Shown: positions 60,260-60,470 of the stretch, one piece after another | How positions within the stretch are numbered: the first letter of the stretch is position 1 | Layout of the letters: every line of letters begins with the position of its first letter | Assembly (NCBI GenBank): GCA_964016885.1 | Contig: OZ024759.1 | Coordinates: forward strand, 33,232,001 to 33,296,000 | Direction of reading: 5' to 3' | From: Eledone cirrhosa | Lineage: Eukaryota | Length of the DNA stretch: 64,000 nucleotides | Program-made: the position numbers and the translations under genes | The notes under the pieces: model-generated | Databases searched by the model: none | What the model saw: the letters and a program-made list of their open reading frames with translations, nothing else | Told to the model about the DNA's origin: nothing

Positions 60260-60285
60260 TATATTTATACATATATATATATATA

Positions 60286-60400
60286 GGAACGAGTAGGACC
60301 CCGACGGCTGAGCTCAAGCCGTTTCGACGGATAATTCTGGACTAAATGAAAATTTTTATCCTGGTATCTGAATAGCCGAGCTTCTCAAGGGGGTAATTCC
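60286..60400 (-). ncRNA. Complete type I hammerhead (U3-A8 core, long stem III) of family A
   Basis: Minus strand: GGAA-ttac-CCCC, TTGAGAA (60388-60382), imperfect stem II GCTCGGCTATTC...GAATTATCCGTC, GAAA (60325-60322), stem III ACGGCT-tgagctc-AGCCGT, GUC site (60305-60303), GGGG-tcctactcg-TTCC. The host element 60283-60430 has (TA)n on both sides. Confidence 0.72.
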
Positions 60401-60470
60401 ATATATGGTAAAAGTGGTCGTCACAAGGATTGGTCAAAATATATATATATATATATATTTATATTCACAT

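Follow-up and report, generated by a model that had tools for sequence, protein, structure and literature searches.

An autonomous Hydra-clade Penelope-like element of Eledone cirrhosa with a type I hammerhead in its terminal repeat and a likely capped RNA start in loop II

Relation of the element to described systems

The reverse transcriptases (RTs) of Penelope-like elements (PLEs) are the sister group of telomerase. The descriptions and comparisons given below refer to passages of the sources cited. C-terminal EN+ PLEs of the Hydra clade (PMC8557442) have the motifs RW[K/R] and DKT, a CxCx5C linker, CxxC/CxH around E and N and no CCHH motif; they insert into (TA)n, carry a type I hammerhead at the 3' end, and show an inverted truncated copy and a one-sided tail. 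Their typical length of less than 3 kb is a descriptive, not a diagnostic, trait. The minimal hammerheads of PLEs (Cervera and de la Pena 2014, PMC4209133) are type I ribozymes in the pseudo-LTR (pLTR), with a minimal stem III, a long helix II, a G10.1-C11.1 pair and a palindromic loop III; a U3-A8 core was described in those of Schistosoma, and a circle model was proposed. The tail of Poseidon, from Anolis carolinensis (Frangieh et al. 2024, PMC11167929), is delimited by two internal sites at which the RT starts, both located downstream of the hammerhead. Its AT-rich target is cut on both strands, and hammerhead mutants were without effect on insertion in vitro. Metazoan non-LTR retrozymes (PMC7229834; bioRxiv 10.64898/2026.07.22.740005) consist of tandem hammerhead units for which a PLE origin has been proposed. 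Outside the PLEs, an untemplated G at the 5' junction is an accepted sign of mRNA cap copying in L1 (PMC11702581, PMC9341517), where twin priming, with two primers on one RNA, leads to inversion.

We analysed a window of 64,000 nt of Eledone cirrhosa DNA (contig OZ024759.1, positions 33,232,001 to 33,296,000), in which a minus-strand sequence had been read, from its letters alone, as the hammerhead of a high-copy, PLE-derived or retrozyme-like non-autonomous family. The hammerhead belongs to an autonomous Hydra-clade PLE of 3.5 kb, of which it is the pseudo-LTR end. The 40 best matches in the genome are full hammerheads, about 96-98% identical, and the sequence upstream of hammerhead copies led to a GIY-YIG reading frame. 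A protein search of the genome gave 76,721 first-look candidates, of which 142, many with open frames of 784 codons, scored at about 97% identity. At the retrieved loci, an intact 784-codon RT+GIY-YIG frame is immediately preceded by the hammerhead in 3.53-kb units, which bears out the suggested Penelope link. These units form head-to-tail arrays with an inverted truncated partner and a one-sided tail, as in EN+ PLEs. The tandem unit measures 3531 bp, with unit lengths by array of 3528-3546 bp. With the predicted cut after GUC (window 60303/60302) as zero, the ORF start codon is at +191; ahead of the first ATG, a further 68 codons without a stop extend back to a point within loop III (L052:2255-2458).

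The predicted structure of the protein (pLDDT 94) has telomerase RT as its best fold match (TERT 3du5, E 4e-8). The GIY-YIG domain was assigned from the VIY..YIG motif, without a profile; a Pfam scan of the protein gave 0 families, and a PDB search gave 0 matches by sequence and one irrelevant match (E 0.41) with a profile. Placement in the Hydra clade rests on motifs, the reference PLE proteins (PMC8557442 supplement) having been compared by eye. RWR (position 104), DKT (184), CxCx5C (639), CxxC..E (737) and CxH (765) were each found in 112-118 of 121 proteins, CCHH is absent, and (TA)n insertion, the 3' hammerhead, the inverted truncated copy and the one-sided tail are likewise shared with the clade. 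However, the unit is longer than the typical <3 kb, the tail is about 80 nt instead of 30-40 nt, and the hammerhead, with U3-A8, a long stem II, a 5-bp stem III and a 9-nt loop, differs from the CUGANGA cores and 3-4-bp stem III given for Hydra elements in File S2 (PMC8557442). Hydra-1_Obim (Craig et al. 2021, PMC8557442) is a separate family with another hammerhead and a visibly different protein.

The expected high copy number was borne out by at least 48,059 exact 3' halves in the genome. The 5' half is present in at least 6,162 exact copies, and the window copy is not unique in this respect. Sixty 10-kb stretches taken at even spacing (600 kb) contained 46 arms at about 27 loci, corresponding to roughly 1.3e5 loci genome-wide, and only 4 of the 46 reached the 5' half. 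In run X5, contig depth summed to as much as 43,500 in the tail but to about 12-18 at the start of the ORF; this is consistent with truncation and is not to be read as copy number. In the one RNA run among 7 sequencing runs (all contigs), about 100 nt of the 3' UTR were covered, with a share of 0.06.

The ribozyme in the window and across the family

All parts named in the sequence-only reading are at the stated places within 60283-60430 on the minus strand (Table 1). Boxes 3-9 and GAAA, the 3-8 pair, G10.1-C11.1 and an NUH site are present; the motif is, by sequence, a type I hammerhead, for which self-cleavage is predicted. A strict hammerhead descriptor matched the young copy L052 and 0 of 20,000 shuffles. 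It did not match the window copy, since the G>T change at 60331 disrupts stem II and stem I contains an additional C. An Rfam scan at gathering thresholds gave 0 matches. The minimum-energy structure is the hammerhead in the youngest subfamily, which thus folds in silico as a monomer, and is not the hammerhead in the window copy (z +0.76); the ensemble share of the hammerhead is 0.43 in the former versus about 1e-6 in the latter. The window copy is mutated and decayed, and a predicted poor folder. Where the 5' half is missing, the stem II 3' strand can pair with the stem III 5' strand, burying GAAA in a hairpin (L052:5768-5783; window 60317-60332), which could be a candidate off-state of the leader. 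At 60110-60282, a small AT-rich inverted repeat with no relation to the hammerhead flanks the (TA)n tract beside the focal arm.

Table 1. Features of the window copy, other arms in the window and mini-tandems elsewhere in the genome
Feature	Position	Strand	Remarks
Focal arm, 5'-truncated 3' end of the Hydra-clade element	60283..60439	-	-136 to +20; (TA)n tracts on both sides
Stem I, 5' strand	60389..60394	-	one C more than in most family copies
Core positions 3-9, UUGAGAA	60382..60388	-	U3-A8 variant
Long stem II	60326..60381	-	G10.1-C11.1, 2x1 internal loop, 6-9 bp helix, inner helix
G10.1	60381	-	
Stem II, 3' strand	60334-60326	-	G>T lesion at 60331
Initiator-like TTAGTC, loop II	60340..60345	-	A at 60343 is -40
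Putative capped transcription start and stop wall of short arms	60343	-	A; judged from DNA junctions
GAAA core (G12 A13 A14 A15.1)	60322..60325	-	
Stem III	60304..60322	-	5 conserved bp; palindromic loop at 60310-60315; strands in window copy 60322-60317 with 60309-60304
GUC	60305-60303	-	predicted cleavage site after GUC, 60302..60303
Stem I, 3' strand	60298..60302	-	
First fixed insertion end, +17 to +20	60283..60286	-	TAT in common with target; putative RT start site 1
Mirror insertion adjoining focal arm, subfamily B	60469..60638		minus arm with +99 tail; plus arm -42 to about +20
Mirror insertion, subfamily A	50194..50378		
Mirror insertion, subfamily A	48216..48440		one end at +99, one at +20
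Solo arm	34856..34999	+	-38 to +99
Mirror insertion	29932..30134		arms start at -40 and -36
Decayed arm	16105..16206	+	
Decayed mirror insertion, subfamily B	12753..12895		
Mini-tandems with jumps	L248:2003-2288; L252:5013-5434; L253:5269-5826; L254:1447-2173		same junction twice in L254

Covariation was assessed in an alignment of 22 related copies of seven subfamily types. Between subfamilies, three pairs of stem II are changed on both sides (G-C/A-U, U-A/G-C, U-A/A-U), as is one pair of the inner helix; most stem II changes fall on one branch (B versus A/C), which implies few independent events. The covariation proposed for stems I to III as a check was thus seen in stem II but not in stem III, and in stem I in one case from a single sequence. 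Unconstrained folding of the alignment favours a structure other than the hammerhead. The 6-bp stem III is paired in the window copy, but its sixth pair is intact in only 9 of the 22 copies and the conserved stem has 5 bp; similarly, the distal GGAA/UUCC pairing exists in the window copy but is not retained as such in subfamilies B and C. All four bases occur at core position 7. U3-A8, correctly recognised in the window copy, occurs in 74 of the 100 cores listed, the others having a C3-A8 mismatch (24) or U3-G8 (2).

Like the minimal hammerheads of PMC4209133, this ribozyme is of type I, lies in a pLTR and has a long helix II, G10.1-C11.1 and a palindromic loop III, while its 5-bp stem III contrasts with the minimal stem III of the former. 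The retained loop III palindrome permits a dimer helix, with a predicted energy of -27.7 kcal/mol against 2 x -5.6 kcal/mol for two monomers. Cleavage as a monomer may be possible; stem III, of 5 bp, shows no covariation. In a sister Hydra-type family, whose protein is about 54% identical, there is a compact hammerhead-like motif (loci L145-L159, e.g., G000:C5:65963820-65968478), in which A replaces the normally invariant U4 (core CAGAAGA) and which is present in 17,900 exact copies.

Mirror-image insertions and the wall at -40

The 3' half of the window copy recurs, as had been noticed, at seven other window loci, comprising 13 further arms, most of them arranged as mirror-image pairs (Table 1). 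Arms end on the outside at +20 or +99 and never, as a class, at the predicted cut. Among 98 mirror pairs examined, which came mostly from targeted loci and may include a few duplicates, 88 of the 91 classifiable ones had one +20 and one +99 end. Two bulged hairpins are predicted just after +20 and +99 (L052:5816-5858 and 5895-5936; the first also in the window region 29932-30000). The two fixed ends recall the internal start sites of Poseidon (PMC11167929), which likewise lie downstream of the hammerhead, define the tail and are used at an AT-rich target cut on both strands; here, unlike there, TAT is common to the target and both sites, the reading frame has its start codon at +191, and genome-wide counts indicate one site per side. 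Palindrome junctions vary and are found in several subfamilies, so the palindromes are made anew at each insertion. A single master palindrome was ruled out, as 20 palindromes with a G junction span several subfamilies. At about 1550-1700 of locus L087, a segment from -35 to +6 is present as three direct 47-nt repeats, possibly from repeated short jumps.

The inner ends are also confined. Of the 46 sampled arms, 30 begin at -31 to -46, irrespective of whether the outer end is +20 or +99, and the mode among 129 truncated arms is -40 (25 arms), with breakpoints spread from -33 to -46. The motif TTAGT, whose A is at -40, is invariant across the 22 aligned copies, one subfamily carrying TCAGTC at this motif; we take TTAGT to resemble the arthropod initiator. 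In a comparison by eye, no match to the DPE consensus was seen at +28 to +32. A splice acceptor at -39/-38 was considered as the cause of the wall and rejected, since the AG is kept in the arms.

An extra base marks the same position. Where two arms that both start at -40 are separated by a single base, that base was G/C 522 times and A/T 79 times, the templated base being T. In the first 100 of 443 solo junctions of the form (TA)n-N-A(-40), N was G in 63, T in 21, A in 9 and C in 7; in the controls, G preceded a start at -37 in 1 of 28 cases and a start at -41 in 0 of the first 100 of 598. Flush ends lacking the G were seen in about 500 solo junctions (-40/-41). A subfamily with C at -41 makes up about 6% of full cores and is too small to account for the 522 G/C junctions. 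In the 20 G-junction palindromes, the extra G belongs to the long arm in 8 and to the short arm in 12.

These junctions make it likely that a capped RNA starts within loop II and is primed at two sites close to its 5' end, and that both cDNAs extend as far as the cap and run off there. The extra G as a cap signature, together with one +20 and one +99 end per pair, suggests that the palindromes are likely twin run-off cDNAs of this capped RNA. The untemplated G at the RNA start and the use of two primers on one RNA are shared with L1 (PMC11702581, PMC9341517), but the G marks full-length copies there and copies of 60-140 nt here, as would follow from priming near the RNA 5' end. The part of PMC4209133 considered here mentions no start site inside loop II, and that of PMC11167929 no run-off at a capped 5' end; the literature searched contained nothing on a cap signature or on a start inside a PLE hammerhead. 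A hammerhead alone is an ordinary finding for PLEs, and the new part is this footprint of a start inside the ribozyme, which makes both pseudo-LTR formation and hammerhead function testable. Some 1e5 insertions of one young family preserve, to the single base, where the RNA starts, both sites at which it is primed, how the template is switched and how arrays are built; this record, together with intact young copies, means that the cycle can be rebuilt in vitro.

Long copies, tandem arrays and the insertion cycle

We consider it probable that the autonomous Hydra-clade PLE carries its type I hammerhead in the terminal repeat, starts a capped RNA in loop II and leaves mirror mini-insertions made from both sides of the break. 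The observed parts of this explanation are the anatomy of the element, the +20 and +99 ends, the occurrence of one of each per pair, the -40 wall and the extra G. Once a (TA)n tract is cut, each of the two ends would be used by the RT for priming, at the two sites of a single RNA, and in most cases nothing but the short leader would be copied from either side of the break. The RT would then run off the cap, adding C opposite it, and the two cDNAs would be joined head to head into a mirror mini-insertion. Long copies and arrays would come from an RNA without the -40 end, most likely, although this step is weaker, a unit-length circle that the hammerhead would make by cutting and ligating the RNA. 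The copy in the window would be a 5'-truncated product of the long-copy route that decayed later. Several results nonetheless count against this explanation: the amplification of cores with the C3-A8 mismatch (24 of the 100 listed), the lack of effect of the Anolis hammerhead mutants in vitro, the different structure favoured by unconstrained folding, the near lack of covariation in stems I and III, and the flush solo junctions.

Among the first 100 of 208 copies reading past +99, 88 cross -40 and the other 12 are rows from five mini-tandems; crossing was scored on five upstream bases and, at 10 full-ORF loci, on 19 bases. None of these 100 is a full-length copy beginning at -40. Since long copies cross -40 and none begins there, their RNA probably had no -40 end. 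Substitutions between units number 0-8 within six arrays and 5-55 between arrays. Homogeneous arrays and passage through -40 fit a circular or multi-unit template, although the arrays could also stem from DNA duplication or assembly error. Two arrays alternate with a period of two: in the four-unit arrays at G000:C1:437.20-437.21 Mb and C1:91.47-91.49 Mb, unit 1 resembles unit 3 and unit 2 resembles unit 4, so each may be a dimer copied twice, from a dimeric circle, by DNA duplication or as an assembly artefact. Of the sources of long copies, a hammerhead-made circle, as in the model of PMC4209133, fits best, read-through of arrays and DNA duplication also being possible.

The same element with the same capped start could do without a circle if long copies arose from uncleaved read-through of arrays, the hammerhead serving to trim or terminate the RNA or being a passenger, which we hold to be somewhat unlikely. 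The C3-A8 cores, the dispensability of the Anolis hammerhead in vitro (PMC11167929), the position of every insertion end downstream of the cut and the location of the Penelope promoter in the upstream pLTR (PMC2377424) all speak for it. However, it leaves unexplained the first origin of arrays with near-identical units and array-specific lengths (3528-3546 bp), and the fold is maintained by compensatory changes across subfamilies. Within the preferred cycle, how the circle would form can be suggested only tentatively, by a route that we rate as rather unlikely in itself. Because the RNA starts inside the hammerhead, the leader carries only the substrate half; it might pair with the enzyme half at the 3' end and lose its cap, and a further cut at the 3' end would then allow a circle from the RNA of a single element. 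A two-strand fold of leader and 5' half across the long stem II is predicted at -29.3 kcal/mol. Uncut capped RNA would yield the abortive mirror mini-insertions, and circles the pseudo-LTRs and tandem arrays; if true, two-strand cleavage would explain both the purpose of PLE hammerheads and the rebuilding of pseudo-LTRs.

An LTR-like strand transfer is doubtful. The start at -40 and the cut at 0 would define a 41-nt terminal repeat, and a run-off cDNA would jump to the 3' repeat and rebuild the pseudo-LTR. Four mini-tandems (Table 1) offer support, as an arm starting at -39 to -43 is joined in them to +184, +200, +213 or +317 and the sequence then stops at -40 to -43; their junctions show that jumps from the 5' end of the RNA to another template position occur. 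Yet first-pass arms halt at the wall in about nine of ten cases, whereas second-pass copies nearly all cross it, which does not fit a constant jump rate. Nor is there an excess of retained G at -41: a cap G was seen in 4 of the 100 rows listed of copies passing -40 (2 loci), a list in which 96 rows belong to the subfamily with C at -41.

The wall could instead be an RT pause at the stem II hairpin, with the G an ordinary terminal addition and the palindromes formed on antisense RNA through self-priming or snap-back, a mechanism put forward in PMC3846280. The location of the wall in a stem II arm and the range of breakpoints agree with such a pause, but the G shows specificity both for -40, given the control values above, and for the sense strand, with 63 G versus 7 C; it occurs in solo arms too, and in 12 of 20 palindromes it lies on the short arm, from which a snap-back copy cannot reach +99; we regard this explanation as very improbable.

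The non-autonomous, retrozyme-like family with a monomer-active hammerhead that had been suggested, with which the in silico monomer fold of the youngest subfamily and one array agree, is barely conceivable and is refuted for the family as a whole, which, unlike metazoan non-LTR retrozymes, is protein-coding, with full hammerheads linked to a coding element's ORF and 3' UTR, palindromes newly made at each insertion and mini-copies that, lacking the 5' half, cannot be ribozymes alone. Small non-coding tandem units with a hammerhead in each, as in those retrozymes (PMC7229834; bioRxiv 10.64898/2026.07.22.740005), were found only at that one array, L249:1785-4022 (G000:C2:356.03 Mb), where seven full 299-nt units each contain a complete hammerhead. 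Their loop II deletion ends exactly at -40, and the array has the PLE-type +99 end and (TA)n flanks; judging by these features, it is a newborn retrozyme-like array derived from the Hydra-clade element.
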